A DNA stretch of 28,704 nucleotides from a virus (Duplodnaviria > Caudoviricetes), in the IMG/VR virus record IMGVR_UViG_3300017988_000022, positions 1 to 28,704 of that record. One strand, given 5' to 3'. Under the pieces are notes generated by a model. That model was not told the DNA's origin. It ran no database searches and saw only the letters and a program-made list of their open reading frames with translations. Positions 2,049 to 28,704 of this stretch are shown piece after piece (positions within the stretch are counted from its first letter, which is position 1; each line of letters starts with the position of its first letter). Made by a program: the position numbers and the translations under genes.

Positions 2049-2387
2049 ATGAGTACGACCGTCCATTGCCCGTGCTGCGGCAAGGCGCTGGTTCTGAGCG
2101 CGCCCCGGCGTCGTGAGGCCCCGGCAATGAACGGTCTGGATGGCATCACGTTCAAGGGCCGCTTTGGCCTGACGGAGCGGGAAGCCGATTGCGCGGACCT
2201 AGCCATCCGCGGAGCGCGCAGTACGGAGATCGCGCAGCGGATGGGGTACGCAAACGCGCAGGTGGTGCGCAACACGATGACGCGGATCTTCGATCGGATT
2301 GGGGTCCGCAACCGGACGGAGCTGCTGATCGTGGGCGTCTTCGGCCGGCGAGGATTGGAAGTGGAGGAGCGGCAATGCAGATCCTGA
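2049..2387 (+). CDS. LuxR/GerE-type HTH protein with N-terminal CPCCG knuckle
   Basis: LTEREADCADLAIRGARSTEIAQRMG...VVRNTMTRIFDRIGVRNRTEL matches the LuxR HTH pattern. Confidence 0.8.
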   Translation: MSTTVHCPCCGKALVLSAPRRREAPAMNGLDGITFKGRFGLTEREADCADLAIRGARSTEIAQRMGYANAQVVRNTMTRIFDRIGVRNRTELLIVGVFGRRGLEVEERQCRS

Positions 2388-3439
2388 AATCCAGTACGCT
2401 TTTGGACTGGGCGCTCCACCTAATGCGCTTGGTGGGCTGGGGATTGATGATTTTCGGCGCGATGACGCTGCTGGGCAGCCTGATGCGGGGCTGTGACGAT
2501 GCGACTCTGCCCGCGGCTTACGCCCAGGGCGCGCCCGTCCATCCCGCCATGCTGCAGGCCCGCTATGACGAGCTGACTGCCGCGTACTGGATGGCTCCCG
2601 ATCCTCAACTTAAGGCGGCACTGCGGGATAGGATGACGACTCTTGAGAAGACGCTGACTGAGATCGACCGCACCGAGCTGGCCGCGAACACCATGGCCCT
2701 TACCGCAGCGCCAGAGCCGCCGGCGAGCTATCGCCTGGAAGACGGCCTGGCGCTGCCCGATCCCGATCTCACGCCCGGCGCGGTGAATCCCGATGCGATC
2801 GCCGATCTCAGTGGGAAGCCGCACAAGGTCCACGGCCTGGAGATGAATCTCTGCGCCAAAGACTTTCGCGCCACGGCGGTGCGCAAGACGATCACGAACT
2901 TTGCCGGGTTGAAGAAGAAGGCCTGCGCCGAGTACGGCCTGGACAAATGTGACGCCAGCGTGGAGGGCGATCACCTGATCTCGATCGAGATCGGCGGCTG
3001 CCCGGATTGCCTCACGAATATCTGGCCGCAGCCGATGGACGAGGCCCGGAAGAAGGATCACCAGTTGGAGGACGTGCTGCCCGGCCTGATCTGCTCGGGG
3101 AAAATGACCCTCCCGGCGGCACAGAAGTGCATCGCCTCGGACTGGGTTGCCTGCGCCAAGCGGATCGACGGGACGGCCATGACTTGGAATTTCCCTCCGC
3201 CAGCTGTTTTTTCGCCTCCGGCAGGGCCATTCTGGGACCTTCGCGACCCCCTGGAGGCTACTACCCCACCACCCGAGTTTGCGTCACGCGTGCGTGGCGC
3301 CCAGAATCGCCGGGAATCCATGCCAGATTTTCTGGTCTTAACCGTTCGGAACGGGATTTTTGGGGTTTGGAGGGGTTGGTCCGGGCTTTTTGGGGGTTCT
3401 CGGGGCTCCGCAACCGGATCGGAAAGGGCTTCCCGATGA
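2375..3439 (+). CDS. Membrane-anchored or exported HNH-like (His-Me) nuclease-family protein
   Basis: GGAGGA RBS before ATG 2375; N-terminal TM; LPDPDLTPG...EGDHLISIEIGG...NIWPQP...KKD..LE...ICSG...AQ..IASDW pattern; ATGA overlap with the next gene. Confidence 0.65.
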   Translation: MQILKSSTLLDWALHLMRLVGWGLMIFGAMTLLGSLMRGCDDATLPAAYAQGAPVHPAMLQARYDELTAAYWMAPDPQLKAALRDRMTTLEKTLTEIDRTELAANTMALTAAPEPPASYRLEDGLALPDPDLTPGAVNPDAIADLSGKPHKVHGLEMNLCAKDFRATAVRKTITNFAGLKKKACAEYGLDKCDASVEGDHLISIEIGGCPDCLTNIWPQPMDEARKKDHQLEDVLPGLICSGKMTLPAAQKCIASDWVACAKRIDGTAMTWNFPPPAVFSPPAGPFWDLRDPLEATTPPPEFASRVRGAQNRRESMPDFLVLTVRNGIFGVWRGWSGLFGGSRGSATGSERASR

Positions 3440-3951
3440 CCACCCTGGGACTGGGCAGCGCGGGCGTTCCCTCTGGGGAAGTTACGGGGCATTTCAGGAC
3501 CGGCGGCCTGAAGCACGTTCGGGTAGCTCTCAGCTCGGCTGGAGGGGCGGCGGTGATCTTTGCCCTCTTCGAGCTGCTGCAGAAGCAGCCTGCCGATGGA
3601 TTCAAGTTGCTGGCGGAGTGGGGACCGTGGCCGATCATCGCCCTGGTTGCCCTGGCTCTCATAGCTCCGTTTCTTTCGGCCATGAACGACACGGTGCGCA
3701 CCGCCTTCGGATCGATCGTCGCGAACTTCGAGCAGCAGACGCAGGCCACAAGTAAACAGGCGGAAGCGTTGACCAGGTTGGCGGATCAGGGGAGCCGCCA
3801 GTCGGAACAGATCGAACGGCTGGTTATCTACTCGGCGCAGGAATGGCCGGGCGTGTATGACCGGTTCGATCGGCAGGACGAAGTGTTGCAGAAGCTGACA
3901 GAAGCGCTGGTTGATCTTCGCGCCCACGTCGGACAGACCAATGGGGGATAG
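3436..3951 (+). CDS. Membrane protein with coiled-coil C-terminus (position of Mu gp25; holin or lysis accessory candidate)
   Basis: ATGA-coupled start; two hydrophobic segments followed by heptad-like Q/E-rich helix; precedes gp26/gp27-like genes. Confidence 0.55.
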   Translation: MTTLGLGSAGVPSGEVTGHFRTGGLKHVRVALSSAGGAAVIFALFELLQKQPADGFKLLAEWGPWPIIALVALALIAPFLSAMNDTVRTAFGSIVANFEQQTQATSKQAEALTRLADQGSRQSEQIERLVIYSAQEWPGVYDRFDRQDEVLQKLTEALVDLRAHVGQTNGG

Positions 3952-9634: not shown

Positions 9635-12304
9635 ATGAACCAGGAACTCGTTTATCTGATCGCGGCCGAGGCCGCAAAGACCAAGTCGGTGGATGGGAAG
9701 GAACACCCATCCTCCGACTTTGCCTACGTGGGCGATGCCGAAGATATCTCGACATGGAGCCTTCCAGACTTCGACGAGGCCCATGTGCGCGATGCGCTGG
9801 CGCGCTTCGACCAGGACAAGGTGATCCCCGCGGCGAAGAAGAAGGCTGTGGCCCGTAAGCTCGCCGCGAAAGCCACGAAGCTGGGCATCGACTGCACGAA
9901 CTTCAAAAAGGAGTACGTGTCGGCCGAGGCGGATCTTTCGCTGGACGAGCAGCAGCAGCTCATCAACGGCGAGCTGCGCGAGCAGTTTGGCCTGGACGAG
10001 CAGGGCTGCCAGCGCTTCTATCTCTTTGAAACCTTCAGTGACTACCTGATCGCGCGCGGTCCGGAGTCGAAGCTCTTTCGTATCCCTTACACCATCGCCG
10101 GCGACGAGGTGACCTTTGGCGACGCGCAGGAAGTGACCACGGCCTATGTGCCAGTGGCCGAGGCTTGTGAGTTCATGGCCGCTGAAGGCGATGCGCAGCC
10201 GCAGTCGGGGAAGTATAAGATCCGCGTTCTCAAGCCCGGCTGGGGCATGGGCGCCGTCAATGGCAAAGCGGTTCCGCACTACTATCCTCCCGCGTTCGTC
10301 GCGAGGGTAGCGGAGGCGGTGGCCGGCAAGCCTTTTGGGCGCAGGCATCCCAACCAGCAGGGCAACGATCCGACCGGTGCCACCGATCCCGATCGCATCG
10401 CGGGCTGGCTGGAGGGCGGTTCGCATGACGCCGGGGGCGCCTACTCTACTGTGAATCTCTTCTCGGCCGAGTCAGATCTCCGTTCACGCCTGGACGATGC
10501 TCGGCAGAACAACAAGCTCGATCTCTTTGCCGTGTCTATGTTGGCCGCGGTGGGCTACAAGCCCGGCCAGGTCGAAGGCAAACAGTGCCTGGTCGCCGAA
10601 GATCTGGGCACGCTCTATTCTGTCGATCTTTGCGCACGGGCCGGCGCTGGCGGTGAATTCCTTACCGCGGCCAGCTTCGCGGCCAACGATGTCTCTGCGG
10701 CGCAATTGCGCGCCGTGAGTCCCAACACAATCGCCATCGCCCCAACCCGGCGTGGCCCCAGCAGCGGCGGCGCTTCAGGCGCTACCGAAGGAGCAGCGTC
10801 CATGAAGGATACCCTTCGCAGACTGCTCGAAGCGCTTCGGCTGAAGAACGCCGGCCGCGCTGCCGAGCTCACCATGAAATTCGCCACCGTGACCGAGGCT
10901 GAATATCCGGCCCTGTTGACGGAAGTGACCACCGCGGTGCTGGAAGCGAATTCGACCGCAGCGGCCACCGCAGTCACCGCTGAAGCCGCCGCGACGCAGC
11001 TGGCTGAGGCACAGCGCATCCAGAGCCGCAACCGCATCGAGACGTCGCTGACGGCATCAAGGCTACCCAAGCCGGCGCAGGACCTGGCGCGCGGACATCT
11101 AGAGCAGGCGCTGGTTGCCGAAGCCGATCTGCCCCAAGCCAAGATCGACGCCGAGATCACCACGGTGCGGACCGCCTTCGCGGCGTTCAACACGGTGGGC
11201 CGTGTGCAGCCTGGCTCAACCGTCACGCTCGACTCCGCCGACAAGATGGCCCTGGCCATGGAAGCGGCGGTGGGCGTCAAGGACTCCATGAACAAGGGCG
11301 TGCCGGCATTCCGCAGTTTGCGCGAAGCCTACACCACCGTCACCGGCGACTGGAATCTGGATAAGCTGCGCGCGGGCGCGGGCTTTACGGGTCATGTGCT
11401 GGCGTCGGAAGCGGTGCTGGCTGCCGACTTTCCGAACATCCTGCTGAACTCGATGACCAAGCGCCTATTGCAGGACTGGGCAGAGCTGGCGCTCGACGGC
11501 CTGCCGAATCTCTACACCAAGGCGTCGATCTCCGACTACAAGATCCAGGACCGCGTGCGTGAGGGCTACTTCGGCGAGCTGGCGACCGTGGCAGAAGGCG
11601 GCCCCTACGTCGAGGTGGCCTATCCCACCGACGAGCTGGTTACCTACCAGATGGTTAAGCGCGGCGGGATGCTCACCATCTCGGAAGAGACCATCCGCAA
11701 CGACGATCTGGGAGCCATCGCCCGCTTCCCCGGCCGCCTGGCGCGGGCTGGACGCTGGACGCTGAAGAACTACATCACCCAGTTCTTCGTCACCAACCCC
11801 AACTACACCGGTGATGCGGTGGCCTGGTTTAACGCCGGGCACAACAACCTCTCGACGGTCGCTTTGTCGCAGGACTCGCTGATCGCCGACGAAGTGGCGC
11901 TGATGACCCAGACCGAGAAGGATTCCGGCGAGCCGCTGGGATTGCCTCTGGACTGGCTGATGGTGCCTGCGGCCCTGGCCGCCACCGCGCGCCAGATCAA
12001 CCAGACCAACACCGCCGGTTCGAACGCGTTCTTCCAGCGTTTCGGCGTGAACAACGAGCGCATCTACGTCAACGAAAAGCTGACCGATGTGATCGACTAC
12101 TACTACGGCACCAACCAGAACAACGCGCCCTTCCTGGAGATGGGCTTCCTCGACGGCATCGAGAACCCGCAGATCTTCCTGGCCAACCAGCCGACGATCG
12201 GCACCCAGTTCACGAACGACGAGCTCCAGTACAAGGTGAAGTTCCCGTTCGCGGGCGCGATCATCGACTTCCGTGGCGTCGGGAAACACGTCGTCGCCGG
12301 CTAA
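9635..12304 (+). CDS. Fused prohead protease - scaffold - major capsid protein (Mu gpT-like HK97 fold) with DUF6582-like N-terminal domain
   Basis: N-terminal SDFAYV..WSLP.FDEAHVRDALARF; protease-like RRH...IAGW...FAVSM...SVDLCARAGAGG; Ala/Glu-rich helical scaffold; capsid motifs FPNILLNSMTKRL, KRGGMLTISEETIRNDDLGA, QYKVK..FAGAIIDFRG. Confidence 0.88.
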   Translation: MNQELVYLIAAEAAKTKSVDGKEHPSSDFAYVGDAEDISTWSLPDFDEAHVRDALARFDQDKVIPAAKKKAVARKLAAKATKLGIDCTNFKKEYVSAEADLSLDEQQQLINGELREQFGLDEQGCQRFYLFETFSDYLIARGPESKLFRIPYTIAGDEVTFGDAQEVTTAYVPVAEACEFMAAEGDAQPQSGKYKIRVLKPGWGMGAVNGKAVPHYYPPAFVARVAEAVAGKPFGRRHPNQQGNDPTGATDPDRIAGWLEGGSHDAGGAYSTVNLFSAESDLRSRLDDARQNNKLDLFAVSMLAAVGYKPGQVEGKQCLVAEDLGTLYSVDLCARAGAGGEFLTAASFAANDVSAAQLRAVSPNTIAIAPTRRGPSSGGASGATEGAASMKDTLRRLLEALRLKNAGRAAELTMKFATVTEAEYPALLTEVTTAVLEANSTAAATAVTAEAAATQLAEAQRIQSRNRIETSLTASRLPKPAQDLARGHLEQALVAEADLPQAKIDAEITTVRTAFAAFNTVGRVQPGSTVTLDSADKMALAMEAAVGVKDSMNKGVPAFRSLREAYTTVTGDWNLDKLRAGAGFTGHVLASEAVLAADFPNILLNSMTKRLLQDWAELALDGLPNLYTKASISDYKIQDRVREGYFGELATVAEGGPYVEVAYPTDELVTYQMVKRGGMLTISEETIRNDDLGAIARFPGRLARAGRWTLKNYITQFFVTNPNYTGDAVAWFNAGHNNLSTVALSQDSLIADEVALMTQTEKDSGEPLGLPLDWLMVPAALAATARQINQTNTAGSNAFFQRFGVNNERIYVNEKLTDVIDYYYGTNQNNAPFLEMGFLDGIENPQIFLANQPTIGTQFTNDELQYKVKFPFAGAIIDFRGVGKHVVAG

Positions 12305-25410: not shown

Positions 25411-25764
25411 ATGACAACACTTTCAGCCGTGATCGCTTCCGGCGCGCTCAGCGCAATCCCCGTGGCAGGCATCGCGGGCCGCATCTACTTTGCCACCGAC
25501 ACCAAGCACACATTCCGGGATAACGGGGCGACCTGGGACGATGTGACGTCTTCGGCGATCCTCGGCTCCGTGGCGCTGGCGCCTGGCGCTGGAGGCAACT
25601 TCACCGTTGCGCACGGGCTGCCCGCGGCGCCGTCGCATGTGGCCTTTCAGAAAACCTCGGGGGGCGACTTCTGGTTCCAGACGCCCACCGCGTTCGACGC
25701 GACCAACCTTTACCTCGTGGCCTCCGATGCGGACGTCACGGGCGTGGCGATCTGCTTTGCGTGA
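25411..25764 (+). CDS. Small tail fibre-associated protein
   Basis: AGGAG RBS; GRIYFATDT...NGATW fibre-type motif and VAHGLPAAP motif. Confidence 0.6.
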   Translation: MTTLSAVIASGALSAIPVAGIAGRIYFATDTKHTFRDNGATWDDVTSSAILGSVALAPGAGGNFTVAHGLPAAPSHVAFQKTSGGDFWFQTPTAFDATNLYLVASDADVTGVAICFA

Positions 25765-25774
25765 GGAGTTTCCT

Positions 25775-28519
25775 ATGAAAAAGAGTCTTTTGATTCTAGC
25801 TTTGAATGTTGCCGCGCTCGTTGCTCTGGTCTTGTTGGTGAGCATTGCCGCTCGTGGGCAGCAGCCTCAGTCGCAGACCGCGCCGCTCTTCGCGGTGAAC
25901 GCCAAATATGCGCAGGGCGTTGCCCCTGGCTACTGGCCCACAGCCGGAACTGGCCTCACGCTGAATCTGGCCGCGGGGACGGCATTCTGCGGCGGCTCGG
26001 TGGTCACCTACGCCGGCGGCACGCTGACCATGACCGCGTCGGCGACCAACTATGTCTACCTGAACGCGGCGGCGAGCTGCGCGCCTGCGGTAAAGACCAC
26101 AGCCTTTACATCGAGCGATATCCCCATCGCGACTGTGGTTGCAGGATCGAGCGCGATCGGCAGCATCGCCGACGATCGCACAATGTTTCAGCAGCCTGGC
26201 GGATCGAGCGGCAGCGTTGTGTCTTCGATCAACGGTGCGGCGGGCTCGTTCACGCTCTCCGGCGCTGGTGTATCGTGCAGCGGAACAACGTGCACCTTCA
26301 GTACCAGCGGCGCGGGTGCTGGGCCATCGCCTTGCCCTTCCGGCGCAACCTGCGATGCCTTTCCCAATTATTCGGTGGGTGGAACGGCCCTAAATCTGAT
26401 GGCTGCTTATCAGAGTTGCTCTGACGCATCTACCAGTCCAATCGTGACGCTTTCGCACACGAATACCAACGGAACCGATAACGCGGCCTGTCCGGTGGGA
26501 GTGGTGATCAACAATCCGGGCACAGCCGGAACAGCTCTTGCCCAATCCACAGGTCCAGCGCCTTGGATATGCGACAACGCTACCCAGGTGGGCGACTGGG
26601 TGACGCTCTCGATTGCGGCTGATGGAGAGTGCGACGACCGTGGCAGCGGGTTCGGTTACGCGGAAAATGGACTGGATGAAACGCCGCAGACCAACACGAT
26701 TGTGGGTCGGGTGATCACCAGTGGAGCGGCGGGGGCTGTGTCACTTATTAACCTTTTTGACAAGCCTCCCATCTCCTGGGGCTACTCTCCAAACAGACCG
26801 TTTTTCCCGCTGTTCAACGGGCCGGGGTCCAAGTACTTCAACTACAGCGCGTGGTGGCAAGATCCGTCCAGCCTCAACCAGGCCTTCTCGGGCAAGGGTC
26901 AAATCCATCTTTATTTTATCGGCAACGCTGGCTACGACCTGATCGATAATGGCGCGGGTGGCATCGGCAACAGCGGCGCGGATTTCGGTTTCGACACAAT
27001 CAGTCACGGTCTTGGGTTGCCCGCGGCCCAGGAAACCTACTTCAACACGTCCACCTATTACCCGCCGAATGTGCAGAGTGCGAATGGCACTGTCAGTGTT
27101 GGCCAGAACGGTTTTTTCCGGATGTCCGCGTCGTCGGGGCACTTTATCTGGACGCTGGCCGGAAACTCCACCACCTACTGTCCGGTGCAGGATAACCCGG
27201 TGCATCACGTTACCTTCGACATCATCCAAGCGGCGAGCGGCGGCCCATATACCTGGACCTGGCCGAGTTGTTTTAAGAATCCTCCGGCAATTCCGACGAC
27301 TGCCGGGGCTTCGACCATGGTCGGCTTTGTGACGTTCGACGCGGTGAACTATTTCTGTGAATGGGGCTGCCCGGGCAGTGCAGGTGGCCCTCCCACAGGA
27401 TCGGCGAGCGGCGATCTCTCGGGCAGTTATCCAGATCCGACAGTCAGCGGTTTAGAAGGCGTTCCATTTTGTACGGGTTTTACCCCGGCTGCAGGACAGA
27501 GCCTTCAATACACGACTTCAAGTTCTCCTAATCCTTGCTATACGGCGGCAACCGTGAGCGGCGGCAGCGGCGGCATCCCCTATGGCATAGCGACGGGCCC
27601 CGCAAACGCTCAGACCTTGACAACTTCGCCGGCGGTTACATCCCTGACTCCCGGCACGATGGTTATATTCCTCCCGAGTGGCAGCCCGTCGGTGGGAAAT
27701 CCGACACTCAATATCGGGGGCACCGGAGCTAAAACCATCGTCAAGAATGGGGCCTATTTCCCTGTTCCCTTATTCGTGGGCGCGAACGGAGACATGAACG
27801 CTTCGGTCCGTGCAATCGTTGTGTACGATGGAACCTATTTGGTGCTTCAAAATCCGGCCTCTGCGACTTCCTACCTCTATGCAGGCGGAAACAATCTCGG
27901 CTTTTCCGACTCGCCTCCGGCGTCTGCGAGCGTGCAGATCGGAATTGGCGCTCTGACGGCTTCTCAGGATGTGGTGATAGGAACCTCCGCCGAGGGCGGT
28001 GGCCCTGGTGGCGGCAATGATGTTGCTGCGGGATACTATGCTTGCTCAATCTCGGGCGGGTCAAACATTTGCGTCGGGCACAATGCGGGCCGATCTGGGC
28101 CCGGCGCGGGGAATACCATCGTCGGTGCGGAAGCTGGCTACGGCACGACCCATAACTACGGCGAAACGGACGGTGGATACTTTGGGACCGGCACATCTCC
28201 CAGCGCGAACAATGTTAACAATCAATGGCTTTTTGGCTATGGGATTACTTCCTCCTTAAGCAATTACCAGCAGTTAGGCAACTCACTTATCACGGAAACG
28301 GCGATTGGCGGGGTTGAGGTTCCGGTGATAACTTACGGCCACGCTGGAACGCCGTTAATGGCTTGTGTTGCTGGTTTTGAGGGAGCAACGGCGCCTGTGA
28401 ATGATGCGATCTCCCTGACCCCCGGGACGCCTTATTCACCCTCAGCGGGAGCGGGCGGCGATACGACGCGAGTGCAATGTACCTATAACGGCAGCACCTA
28501 CGCCTGGCAAACGATGTGA
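25775..28519 (+). CDS. Mosaic tail-fibre / adhesin-like protein with N-terminal signal peptide (914 aa)
   Basis: GAGGAG RBS before ATG 25775; MKK + long hydrophobic core + IAARG/Q; Gly/Ser/Thr-rich fibre domains, GDLSGSYPDPTV, PTLNIGGTGAKTI, N..VG..AG repeats; 20 Cys. Confidence 0.75.
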   Translation: MKKSLLILALNVAALVALVLLVSIAARGQQPQSQTAPLFAVNAKYAQGVAPGYWPTAGTGLTLNLAAGTAFCGGSVVTYAGGTLTMTASATNYVYLNAAASCAPAVKTTAFTSSDIPIATVVAGSSAIGSIADDRTMFQQPGGSSGSVVSSINGAAGSFTLSGAGVSCSGTTCTFSTSGAGAGPSPCPSGATCDAFPNYSVGGTALNLMAAYQSCSDASTSPIVTLSHTNTNGTDNAACPVGVVINNPGTAGTALAQSTGPAPWICDNATQVGDWVTLSIAADGECDDRGSGFGYAENGLDETPQTNTIVGRVITSGAAGAVSLINLFDKPPISWGYSPNRPFFPLFNGPGSKYFNYSAWWQDPSSLNQAFSGKGQIHLYFIGNAGYDLIDNGAGGIGNSGADFGFDTISHGLGLPAAQETYFNTSTYYPPNVQSANGTVSVGQNGFFRMSASSGHFIWTLAGNSTTYCPVQDNPVHHVTFDIIQAASGGPYTWTWPSCFKNPPAIPTTAGASTMVGFVTFDAVNYFCEWGCPGSAGGPPTGSASGDLSGSYPDPTVSGLEGVPFCTGFTPAAGQSLQYTTSSSPNPCYTAATVSGGSGGIPYGIATGPANAQTLTTSPAVTSLTPGTMVIFLPSGSPSVGNPTLNIGGTGAKTIVKNGAYFPVPLFVGANGDMNASVRAIVVYDGTYLVLQNPASATSYLYAGGNNLGFSDSPPASASVQIGIGALTASQDVVIGTSAEGGGPGGGNDVAAGYYACSISGGSNICVGHNAGRSGPGAGNTIVGAEAGYGTTHNYGETDGGYFGTGTSPSANNVNNQWLFGYGITSSLSNYQQLGNSLITETAIGGVEVPVITYGHAGTPLMACVAGFEGATAPVNDAISLTPGTPYSPSAGAGGDTTRVQCTYNGSTYAWQTM

Positions 28520-28637: not shown

Positions 28638-28704
28638 CCGGAATTATTTGTCACACCTATGACACGTAATTCTGGGAACCCATGACACGCAATTCCGGCA
28701 GCCA
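28638..28704. repeat. Putative right end (attR) of the transposable phage: three transposase-binding sites and terminal CA
   Basis: TGACACGTAATTCTGG (28660-28675), TGACACGCAATTCCGG (28683-28698) and inverted TGACAAATAATTCCGG (28638-28653, minus strand); sequence ends ...CA. Confidence 0.8.

Follow-up and report, generated by a model that had tools for sequence, protein, structure and literature searches.

A predicted secretion leader on a cysteine-paired, tail-fibre-like protein of a peat-soil phage

Tailed-phage assembly is, in the textbook account, wholly cytoplasmic. We know of no precedent for an exported fibre in a tailed phage, and a literature search that covered few subscription journals found no description of an exported fibre or receptor-binding protein in these phages. 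In the anchor-plus-branch systems (G7C gp66/gp63.1, the CBA120 tailspikes and the Klebsiella KP32-type proteins), adjacent genes encode a tail-anchored first protein and a second protein whose N-terminal part is conserved and whose distal part varies; neither partner has a leader, and both stay in the cytoplasm. The receptor-binding protein of filamentous phages, pIII, carries a signal peptide and forms its disulfides outside the cytoplasm; these inoviruses assemble at the membrane without lysis. The lom-type morons of lambda, located in the fibre region, have their own promoter and terminator and stand apart from the late operon. A beta-sandwich shoulder of the same fold is found in the long tail fibre of cyanophage A-1(L) (8kec), ORF18 of lactococcal phage p2 (2wzp), the receptor-binding protein of phage 1358 (4l92) and Bordetella phage Mtd (1yu0). 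Receptor-binding proteins of this type are virion components, homotrimers attached to the baseplate or the tail tip. The genes for the MAT fibres of Bdellovibrio bacteriovorus are reportedly chromosomal genes of the predator that lie outside tail modules, and their products are said to act on the predator's surface or vesicle. MAT fibres are described as exported proteins with a signal peptide, a beta-rich N-terminal domain of ~130 aa, a phage-fibre-like stalk and swapped tips (PMC10769870). WceF of Pantoea stewartii has a Tat signal, belongs to the stewartan EPS cluster and contains a P22-type head-binding domain (PMC7949094). Both are exported phage-fibre-like proteins that keep a virion-binding-type N-domain without being parts of a virion (PMC7949094, PMC10769870).

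The gene considered here lies in the window, by which we mean the whole stretch of 28,704 nt analysed (IMG/VR record IMGVR_UViG_3300017988_000022); the source virus is a peat-soil phage. Unlike an inovirus, this phage is tailed, and genes for a terminase, a portal and a capsid occur in the window. Its small terminase gives a match to Mu Gp27, and the window also encodes a Mu F-like protein. The element is likely a Mu-like siphophage, with the open reading frame at 25775..28519 (+ strand; ATG at 25775, stop codon at 28517-28519, 914 aa) as its last gene, at the right end. In the window this gene follows those for the tape measure, proteins of 282 and 403 aa and a J-like protein of 1038 aa, and the contig ends 185 nt past its stop codon, in agreement with the original prediction that it is the last gene. 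In the terminal segment (28659..28704, + strand), direct repeats of 17 nt occupy 28659-28675 and 28682-28698, and the last letters are ...GCAGCCA; the segment is likely the right end of a transposable Mu-like genome. Three related loci, L002, L005 and L006, have the same repeats and terminus, and beyond these each continues into a different flank; the contig end looks like the phage's own right end. The possibility of a host gene abutting a prophage end was ruled out by this nearby phage end and by the gap of 10 nt between the ATG of the fibre gene and the stop codon of the gene upstream (g117).

A strong ribosome-binding site, GAGGAG (25763..25768, + strand), can be read from the sequence 6 nt 5' of the ATG, where it overlaps the TGA stop codon of g117. 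For comparison with the lom-type morons, the gap is short, this site lies over the upstream stop codon, and no promoter-like site was seen on the + strand before the gene; the last of these is a weak test, and the site counts, like the scan for promoters and terminators around the gene, are at chance level. The ATG upstream of the hydrophobic N-terminal segment held up as the start codon. The first in-frame Met that follows is M85, within the conserved domain; for that reason no start 3' of the hydrophobic segment is plausible, and an alternative start after the leader was ruled out.

As judged by sequence rules and by comparison with homologues, the protein has a leader of the Sec/signal peptidase I type (residues 1-28; 25775..25858, + strand). 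It begins MKKSLL and comprises an MKK n-region charged at K2 and K3, a long hydrophobic core (roughly residues 5-25, with a hydropathy of 3.07 in the best 12-residue stretch) and a cleavage region, A26-R27-G28 before Gln29, with small residues at -3 and -1, so that it has the sequence features of a Sec signal cut by signal peptidase I. A Tat signal was ruled out by the absence of a twin-arginine motif (no RR) from the n-region, and a lipoprotein by the absence of a lipobox and of Cys at +1. Most homologues have a shorter hydrophobic core than the ~20 residues seen here, and the leader of the window copy may go uncleaved and, as a signal anchor, keep the protein at the inner membrane on its periplasmic side. 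AF2 models the leader as one helix (residues 2-25). The unusual length of the core and this single helix also suit a reading that we regard as improbable, namely that the hydrophobic N-terminus does not serve export; the protein would then be cytoplasmic (for example, with Sec saturated or shut down late), the helix would act as a tether or as an element of assembly or trimer formation, and the cysteines would be oxidised after release.

The features of the family argue for export. All 55 other matches of the first search have a leader on reading, and of 133 new representative clusters, drawn from the best 150 matches, 126 have a clear leader, 6 a short or truncated one and 1 none; the homologues do keep the leader. 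The parse of 45 members was built around Gln at +1; the residue before it, at -1, is A (29 members) or G (11) in most, and those at -3 include A (17), L (12) and V (6). Of 112 further members, 99 have a small residue (A, G or S) at -1. These statistics fit signal peptidase I cleavage, with suitable -3/-1 residues in 40/45 and 99/112 members, and the leaders have no common sequence but only the signal-peptide pattern in common. Both observations tell against a cytoplasmic protein with a helical tether, and so does Gln at +1, with the proviso that the parse itself imposes it on the 45 members. Export of the fibre from the cytoplasm is thus well supported by the leader patterns of the window copy and its relatives.

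The original prediction described 20 cysteines that fall into ten neighbouring pairs. This was confirmed, the pairs being 72/102, 168/173, 187/193, 215/239, 266/286, 469/499, 528/532, 566/588, 757/766 and 864/902, and the four motifs that it quoted (CSGTTC, CPSGATC, CEWGC and CSISGGSNIC) are all present. When the cysteines were placed at random 200,000 times, only 0.4% of the placements had within-pair distances that summed to no more than 188, and in only 0.16% did no pair span more than 38. The Cys content of the fibre is 2.19% as compared with 0.92% in 22 other window ORFs counted, and the tape measure has no Cys at all. The homologues keep one of the pairs: C72/C102 is invariant in 38/38 aligned copies. 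In 8kec, the cyanophage fibre that has no leader, S and A occupy the equivalent columns, and a leaderless Syntrophomonadaceae phage relative (P0062, one weak relative from a search of the INPHARED phage collection) contains just one Cys over its entire length. Without export the cysteine pairs could still oxidise in air after lysis, but the S and A columns of the one leaderless protein and the single Cys of the other speak against this reading. The mature Cys count is even in 33/45 and in 77/112 family members. Because a secretion leader is combined with ten Cys pairs, the fibre is predicted to fold outside the cytoplasm.

The domain typical of fibre N-termini that had been proposed to follow the leader is real and has a receptor-binding-protein shoulder fold homologous to a solved tail fibre. 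This shoulder domain (residues ~50/56-141; 25940..26197, + strand), which holds the invariant pair C72/C102, is identified by fold and by profile matches and was modelled by AF2 with a pLDDT of 92-97 over residues 61-130. The closest fold match is 8kec_A (Z 10.0, rmsd 2.8 over 87 aa, 24% identity), followed by 2wzp_A (Z 8.2, rmsd 3.4 over 93 aa), 1yu0_A (Z 6.0) and 4l92_A (Z 6.0). The profile of the N-domain also matches the A-1(L) tail fibre 8kec_A by sequence (E 3e-6, 87 positions), and the BFVD matches are Mtd_N-type and hyaluronidase fibre proteins. The N-domains of 38 members were compared with Pfam, and none gave a match with E ≤ 1 to any model, Mtd_N (PF18454) and BppL_N (PF18338) included. 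The window fibre has in common with the shoulder-bearing receptor-binding proteins a particle-proximal N-terminal part, a variable distal part and a gene that ends the tail module. It differs from them in that the domain lies behind a leader of the cleavable secretion type and contains the invariant Cys pair. With the MAT fibres (PMC10769870), the likeness is one of layout only.

Between the leader and the shoulder lies a pre-shoulder segment (residues 29-55, QQPQ...NAKY..G..PGYWPT; 25859..25939, + strand), the conserved mature N-terminus and a candidate docking segment. Its residues N42, G48 and G52 are invariant in 38/38 rows, and its pLDDT is below 50 in the monomer AF2 model. The remainder of the protein is divided into a middle region (residues 145-560; 26207..27454, + strand) with six Cys pairs and a pLDDT mostly below 50, and a C-terminal region (residues 595-914 plus the stop codon; 27557..28519, + strand) with two Cys pairs. 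The middle region is common only to P0003, P0006 and P0042, and the Atlas clusters closest to it, every one of them viral and fibre-like, offer no more than a lead. The C-terminal region is 62% identical to the C termini of P0004 and P0005, which have leaders of their own and other N termini. It is likely the distal, ligand-binding end, and its Atlas matches point, again as leads only, to viral tail-fibre clusters; the Atlas neighbours of the two regions score 0.80-0.92. A search with residues 150-914 found only 9 proteins at E of 1e-5 or better, which places a deeper alignment of this part out of reach. The full-length AF2 model has a mean pLDDT of 47, and only the shoulder, the helix of the leader and some stretches within residues 560-700 could be used; no fold can be assigned to residues 145-914 because of the low AF2 confidence. 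In searches with the full-length protein, no Pfam family was found at E of 0.01 or better and no PHROG family, and the full-length alignment retrieved nothing from the PDB by sequence. There was no match to the S74 chaperone-protease (Peptidase_S74), which marks one MAT subfamily, and no beta-helix family by Pfam in a protein whose residues 145-914 are modelled at low confidence. With regard to a diversity-generating retroelement that might target the gene, no reverse transcriptase caught the eye in the window.

The leader and shoulder together define a large family. A profile search with this part gave 2595 clusters at an E cut-off of 1e-3, 775 at 1e-10 and 462 at 1e-30, so the family, which is uncurated and almost all from Acidobacteriota, comprises at least 462 clusters. 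About 50 of 56 matches have the N-domain alone in common, directly behind the leader; the leader and the Gln that follows it (+1) are kept throughout, one Cys pair never varies, and the C termini swap freely. Pectate-lyase-type tailspike domains are found in P0029 and P0030; these two and P0018 have domains of the right-handed beta-helix kind that is catalytic in WceF-like EPS hydrolases. GDSL and Laminin_G_3 domains also occur among family members. In a phylum-wide genome sample the domain was found in the query genome only (1/301), a narrow distribution among the genomes searched.

The gene that directly precedes the fibre gene in the window, g117 (25411..25764, + strand), encodes a mini-fibre of 117 aa in which a fibre-anchor motif at the N terminus is followed by a beta-sandwich knob at the C terminus; the protein has no leader and 1 Cys, and matches phrog_19068 (E 8.7e-10). 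The AF2 model of residues 50-117 has a pLDDT of 89-96. Fold matches to the knob are middling (Pam1 tailspike RBD, Z 7.3; AP22 gp53, Z 6.7; R2 pyocin fibre, Z 6.1), and the best of them are fibre or spike tip domains, not known adaptor domains. A g117-like knob gene is located directly upstream of the leader-plus-shoulder gene in 42/53 related loci; in 40 of these 42 the end of the knob ORF is 64-276 nt from the shoulder domain, in L004 and L002 the distance is greater than 1 kb, and in L027 the start of the fibre gene overlaps the stop codon of the partner (ATGgTAA). By this recurrent arrangement, g117 is the conserved upstream partner of the putatively exported protein. The pair resembles the anchor-plus-branch systems but differs in that only the second protein carries a leader; binding between the partners is proposed. 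The relative conservation of the pre-shoulder segment is 1.18 in loci with a g117-like partner (n=42) versus 0.99 in those without (n=9; one-sided Mann-Whitney p=0.005, a statistic that ignores relatedness).

The location of the family genes bears on whether the exported protein belongs to a particle. The tail module ends with the fibre gene in the window and in L001 (the same element as L005), L004 and L006; the J-like proteins of these four are 55-63% identical, and their putatively exported fibres are alike in the N-domain only. A leader-plus-shoulder gene also ends an unrelated head-tail cluster with a short tape measure in ~31-35 of 53 loci, and in L009, a satellite-like island with an integrase, a D5-type primase and a small terminase, it begins 3 nt past the terminase gene. 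Nine to eleven of the 53 loci have neither the partner gene nor a tail module, so the domain also works without a virion. Two such copies, in L043 and L028, are located amid sugar-nucleotide and glycosyltransferase genes, that is, in polysaccharide loci.

These copies lend weight to the main rival of a virion fibre, which we consider a real possibility though a doubtful one. The protein would be exported but never enter the particle, and would be a periplasmic or surface fibre or a depolymerase that acts on the envelope polysaccharide of the producing cell. It could trim EPS or capsule for the escape of progeny, destroy or mask the receptor (giving superinfection exclusion and less re-adsorption to debris) or bring about lysogenic conversion. 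The evidence for export belongs to this rival equally, and the pectate-lyase-type, GDSL and Laminin_G_3 domains of family members suit it, as do two precedents. WceF is a Tat-exported EPS hydrolase of tailspike fold that keeps a P22-type head-binding domain, and the shoulder would serve only trimer formation or stability, as proposed there for WceF (PMC7949094). WceF and the window family are alike in export, tailspike-type architecture and a virion-binding-type N-domain, and its position in an EPS cluster parallels that of the L043 and L028 copies; the window gene differs from it in the Sec-type leader, the phage tail module and the shoulder-type domain. Proteins of Porphyromonas phages with leaders and Gln at +1 are read by the authors who described them as surface modifiers (PMC10367356). 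A protein that stays off the particle is not readily reconciled with a gene that is terminal in tail modules of two unrelated types and in a satellite-like island, and that adjoins a fibre gene in close coupling instead of standing off under a promoter of its own (on a weak promoter scan). Nor does it account for a pre-shoulder segment that is best kept where the partner gene is present, and no enzyme domain was found in the window protein by Pfam or PHROG searches.

The original prediction left a choice between a virion fibre attached at lysis and a cell-surface adhesin or decoy. Export, on which both depend, stands, and the choice between them is undecided by the data: the gene context favours the virion fibre, and the copies in polysaccharide loci together with the WceF and MAT precedents keep the adhesin or decoy alive. 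The evidence on the fibre comes from sequence, predicted structure and gene context. Our preferred reading, to which we give a probability of roughly 45%, is that the fibre is secreted and then attached to the tail tip of the virion at lysis. Sec would carry the unfolded fibre to the periplasm, where it would be cleaved before Gln29 or retained as a signal anchor, fold oxidatively with formation of its disulfides and be built into a trimer. The particles, built in the cytoplasm, would bear the leaderless mini-fibre together with the J-like protein of 1038 aa. Once lysis opens the inner membrane and the wall, the shoulder and the segment of residues 29-55 would bind the tail tip, possibly by way of the mini-fibre. 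The variable distal part would then be a module for host recognition or for cutting glycans, and the disulfides would give it stability in acid peat. In its general form the proposal is one of assembly in two compartments, with heads and tails made in the cytoplasm and secreted, disulfide-bonded and possibly pyroglutamate-capped fibres joining the leaderless mini-fibre at the tail tip within the seconds that separate membrane breach from burst. We advance it tentatively, at rather less than even odds, for tailed phages of Acidobacteriota and for a head-tail cluster that over half of the genomes in one acidobacterial family have inherited.

The conserved pairing of the knob gene with the exported-fibre gene, and the resemblance of the knob to lectin-like fibre tips, could also be accounted for if the fibre were a self-made receptor, placed on the cell surface as a docking point for the mini-fibre knob of kin particles. 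We think this very unlikely. The transposable phage of the window would thereby waste progeny on immune lysogens, and the shoulder is the particle-proximal part in the solved fibres. It is conceivable for the vertically inherited short-tape-measure cluster, should that be a gene-transfer agent: the cluster is present in 71/133 genomes of one acidobacterial family (a count that includes the unpublished genome G333), and 12/53 loci have the same chromosomal neighbours downstream.

If fibres of this kind mature in the periplasm across a large soil-phage group, phage production would be limited by Sec, by the disulfide machinery and by the timing of lysis, and cytoplasmic expression would fail, which changes how such fibres are to be produced in the laboratory. 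The reading of "secreted phage CAZymes" in soil metagenomes would change, as would host-range prediction for the Acidobacteriota, a dominant and poorly cultured soil phylum. If instead the exported protein stays off the particle, the family would be a large one of phage-borne exported envelope fibres or depolymerases, with an undescribed accessory function. Other candidate receptor binders are encoded by the phage, namely the 1038-aa J-like protein, which contains Big_2, and the mini-fibre with its lectin-like knob, and the phage need not depend on the exported fibre for this reason.

The HNH-like and lipoprotein-like late proteins that had been brought forward as further exported products give weak support: hydrophobic segments are present in them, and neither has a Pfam match. 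Their ORFs are located just 5' of the small terminase. Mu-like phages keep their lysis genes just upstream of the small terminase, and the support is weak because membrane or exported lysis proteins are ordinary at that site. Metatranscriptome data are available as contigs, from which expression levels are not comparable or rankable. Three libraries contain short, low-depth contigs that are 100% identical to the phage and scattered over the capsid-to-fibre genes, with DNA carry-over as a possible source; in the fibre gene they cover positions 26047-27380 and 28066-28354.

The plus strand of this single virus contig of 28,704 bases, which is the whole record, carries a siphovirus-type late region. 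The listed gene order begins with a Mu Gp27-type small terminase and continues with the large terminase, the portal, a Mu F-like protein, an 889-residue protease-capsid fusion (9635–12304), the tail tube, a tape measure of 1136 residues, two tail proteins of 282 and 403 residues, a J-like protein of 1038 residues (Big_2; phrog_1727, "tail protein and host specificity"), the next-to-last gene g117, which encodes a leaderless mini-fiber of 117 residues (25411–25764; phrog_19068), and, as the last gene, the 914-residue target (25775–28519). In the fusion ORF, an HK97-type capsid domain (Phage_capsid_4, residues 593–882) follows a long N-terminal part, and the ORF matches PHROGs labeled "head maturation protease" and "major head and protease protein." Just 5′ of the small terminase gene lie three ORFs with several hydrophobic segments (872–1708, 2189–3439, and 3007–3951), which have no Pfam match and are probably the proteins termed "exported HNH-like and lipoprotein-like" in the original prediction; in Mu-like phages, lysis genes occupy this position.

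The target had been predicted to begin with a hydrophobic signal segment and to carry its cysteines in sequential pairs, and both features hold on closer analysis. A GAGGAG sequence lies 6 nt 5′ of the ATG, overlapping the stop codon of g117, and no further in-frame Met occurs before residue 85, so the start is real, and with it the hydrophobic N terminus. The 20 Cys residues form ten neighboring pairs, an arrangement equally tight in 0.2–0.4% of random placements, and Cys is 2.4 times as dense in the target as in the window's remaining ORFs. A blastp comparison divides the protein into modules: the leader (residues 1–28, a predicted Sec/signal peptidase I signal peptide), the N-domain (29–140), a middle region (145–560) common to P0003, P0006, and P0042, and a C-terminal region (595–914) common to P0004 and P0005.

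A search with the whole target returned 56 proteins, one of which is the window's own cluster, and about 50 match residues 29–140 only. Retention of the leader by homologs, which the original prediction had put forward as a check, is borne out by a hydrophobic N terminus, as read by eye, in all 55 others; the leaders have no sequence in common among them. Parsing succeeded for 45 family members: the conserved QQPQ is preceded by Ala in 29 and by Gly in 11, and position −3 is Ala, Leu, Val, or Ile in 38, which is the pattern of signal peptidase I sites. A profile of 38 N-domain copies, run against 1.84 billion representatives, matched 2595, 775, and 462 clusters at E-values of 1e-3, 1e-10, and 1e-30, respectively. 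Among its best 150 matches were 133 new proteins: a leader was found in 112 by script and in 14 more by eye, in six the leader is short or truncated, which looks like an effect of gene calling, and one, P0067, has none. P0067 is a 1155-residue protein in which the profile matches nine separate stretches. Cys72 and Cys102 are invariant in 38 of 38 N-domain copies, and the number of Cys in the mature part is even in 33 of 45 and 77 of 112 members. A Gln comes directly after the predicted cleavage site of almost every family member, and also of P0004, P0042, P0054, P0056, and P0057, whose mature N termini are unrelated; it may reflect a habit resembling the Q-rule (pyroglutamate capping) outside Bacteroidota.

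The AF2 model, computed with a 56-row alignment, is confident only at the leader helix and residues 55–135 (pLDDT 92–97). The N-domain, which is covered by no Pfam model, superimposes best on the tail fiber of cyanophage A-1(L) (8kec_A; Z 10.0, rmsd 2.8 over 87 residues, 24% identity). Lower scores were obtained for the shoulder of the receptor-binding protein of lactococcal phage p2 (Z 8.2), for Mtd, the phi812 baseplate, and the receptor-binding protein of phage 1358 (Z about 6), for the fiber of Haloferax virus HFTV1 (Z 5.5), and for TssK (Z 4.7). The N-domain profile also matches 8kec by sequence (E 3e-6), and the proposal of a fiber-type N-terminal domain behind the leader is thus supported by both fold and sequence. 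In contrast to the family, 8kec has Ser and Ala in the columns of the two invariant Cys, and the sole relative among the phages of the cultured and curated collection, a 175-residue "tail protein" of a Syntrophomonadaceae phage, lacks a leader and has one Cys in the whole protein. From these matches and the Cys state of the leaderless relatives, the N-domain is a true receptor-binding-protein shoulder domain, and the leader and Cys pair were gained in the lineage of the target. A canonical leader kept in hundreds of clusters, together with the +1 Gln and with Cys pairs missing from leaderless relatives, makes the predicted export the well-supported step of the mechanism proposed below.

Gene context was compared in 53 loci, four from viral contigs and 49 from genomes, 47 of the latter being Acidobacteriota or Terriglobia MAGs by record titles. 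L001 (the same element as L005), L004, and L006 contain a tail module of the window type, with J-like proteins 55–63% identical, and each module ends with a leader protein whose similarity to the target is confined to the N-domain; a shared module with a divergent last gene shows the mosaicism seen in host-range genes. A partner gene with a C-terminal knob homologous to g117 is present in 42 of the 53 loci and ends 64–276 nt before the shoulder domain, its stop codon overlapping the ATG of the leader gene in L027; the partner protein is leaderless. Modeled g117 (knob pLDDT 89–96) resembles fiber and spike tip domains with middling scores (Pam1, Z 7.3; AP22 gp53, Z 6.7; R2 pyocin, Z 6.1). The pre-shoulder segment (residues 38–58) is relatively better conserved where the partner is present, by a statistic that ignores kinship. 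In L009 (3769–11955), a satellite-like island encodes an integrase, a D5_N/NrS-1-type primase, and a small terminase (Terminase_2, E 2.5e-29), directly 3′ of which are a 298-residue leader-plus-shoulder gene and then a second leader protein of 347 residues.

We propose that the target is a receptor-binding fiber that would mature in the periplasm and, once mature, would join the tail tip at lysis. The probability of this full chain is, in our estimate, about 0.45. A place in the virion is suggested by the shoulder domain, which is the particle-proximal part in solved fibers, by the position of the gene at the close of the tail module beside a leaderless fiber gene, by the leader-plus-shoulder gene of the satellite-like island, and by distal parts that swap like host-range modules. 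Tail fibers and tailspikes can add to particles in vitro, which makes attachment after lysis physically conceivable. In a full-text literature search, an exported fiber of a tailed phage was described nowhere among the results. The main competing explanation, that the protein is an exported fiber or depolymerase working on the envelope of its producer and never part of the particle, is somewhat less likely but deserves serious weight. It is favored by free-standing copies: 9–11 of the 53 loci have neither partner nor tail module, and the leader genes of L043 and L028 sit amid sugar-nucleotide and glycosyltransferase genes. It also has precedents in two published cases: WceF of Pantoea stewartii, an exported enzyme of tailspike fold that retains a head-binding-type domain (PMC7949094), and the Bdellovibrio MAT fibers, in which a signal peptide precedes a conserved β-rich N-domain (PMC10769870). 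Among the papers retrieved, the nearest statements come from a soil-prophage CAZyme survey, which gives leaders on 5% of enzymes, with fiber proteins set aside (PMC13507307), and from a study of Porphyromonas phages, which describes leader proteins with Gln at +1, interpreted as surface modifiers (PMC10367356).

The window ends 185 nt 3′ of the target with two 17-nt direct repeats and a terminal ...GCAGCCA (28659–28704). The same repeats and terminus occur in L002, L005, and L006, with a different flanking sequence beyond them in each of the three; an ORF in the L006 flank looks, when read by eye, like alanyl-tRNA synthetase. Positions 28659–28704 are likely where the genome of a transposable, Mu-like siphophage infecting Acidobacteriota has its right end. 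From the shared terminus with differing flanks, the F protein, and the terminase of Mu type, we infer that the window element is such a phage, with the target as its last gene. The left early region, where a transposase would be expected, lies outside the window.

A second, different head-tail cluster is present in approximately 31–35 of the 53 loci. Its order is large terminase, portal, protease, capsid, a 262-residue tube-like protein, a short tape measure of 277 residues, a hub of about 1500 residues, a 165-residue protein, a 218-residue fiber, and a leader protein of 700–2564 residues. The cluster is seen in L027 (1–14161) with L054 and also in L007, L011–L017, L019, L022, L024–L026, L031, L036, L037, L045, and L050. 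The N-domain occurs, mostly as a single copy, in 71 of 133 genomes of one acidobacterial family, a count that includes the unpublished genome G333, and in only 1 of 301 genomes of an even phylum-wide sample. The same genes follow the cluster in 12 loci, named dienelactone-hydrolase-like and MsrQ/MsrP-like from reading the sequences by eye, and no integrase was noticed near it. This pattern makes the cluster a candidate for a vertically inherited, possibly domesticated prophage or gene-transfer-agent-like element, which merits separate study. In one genome (L055, 8342–14541), genes for two further leader proteins, of 1541 and 505 residues, separate the portal gene of the cluster from its protease gene. 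In L027, the 5′ end of the leader coding sequence (9786–9935) is a long hairpin (−60.4 kcal/mol, z −5.4, with none of 200 shuffles as good), the two arms of which encode the n-region and hydrophobic core of the leader. Other species have different peptide words at the L027-type leader that are again reverse-complement translations of one another, which points to a structure, in RNA or DNA, that is conserved where the leader gene adjoins its partner.
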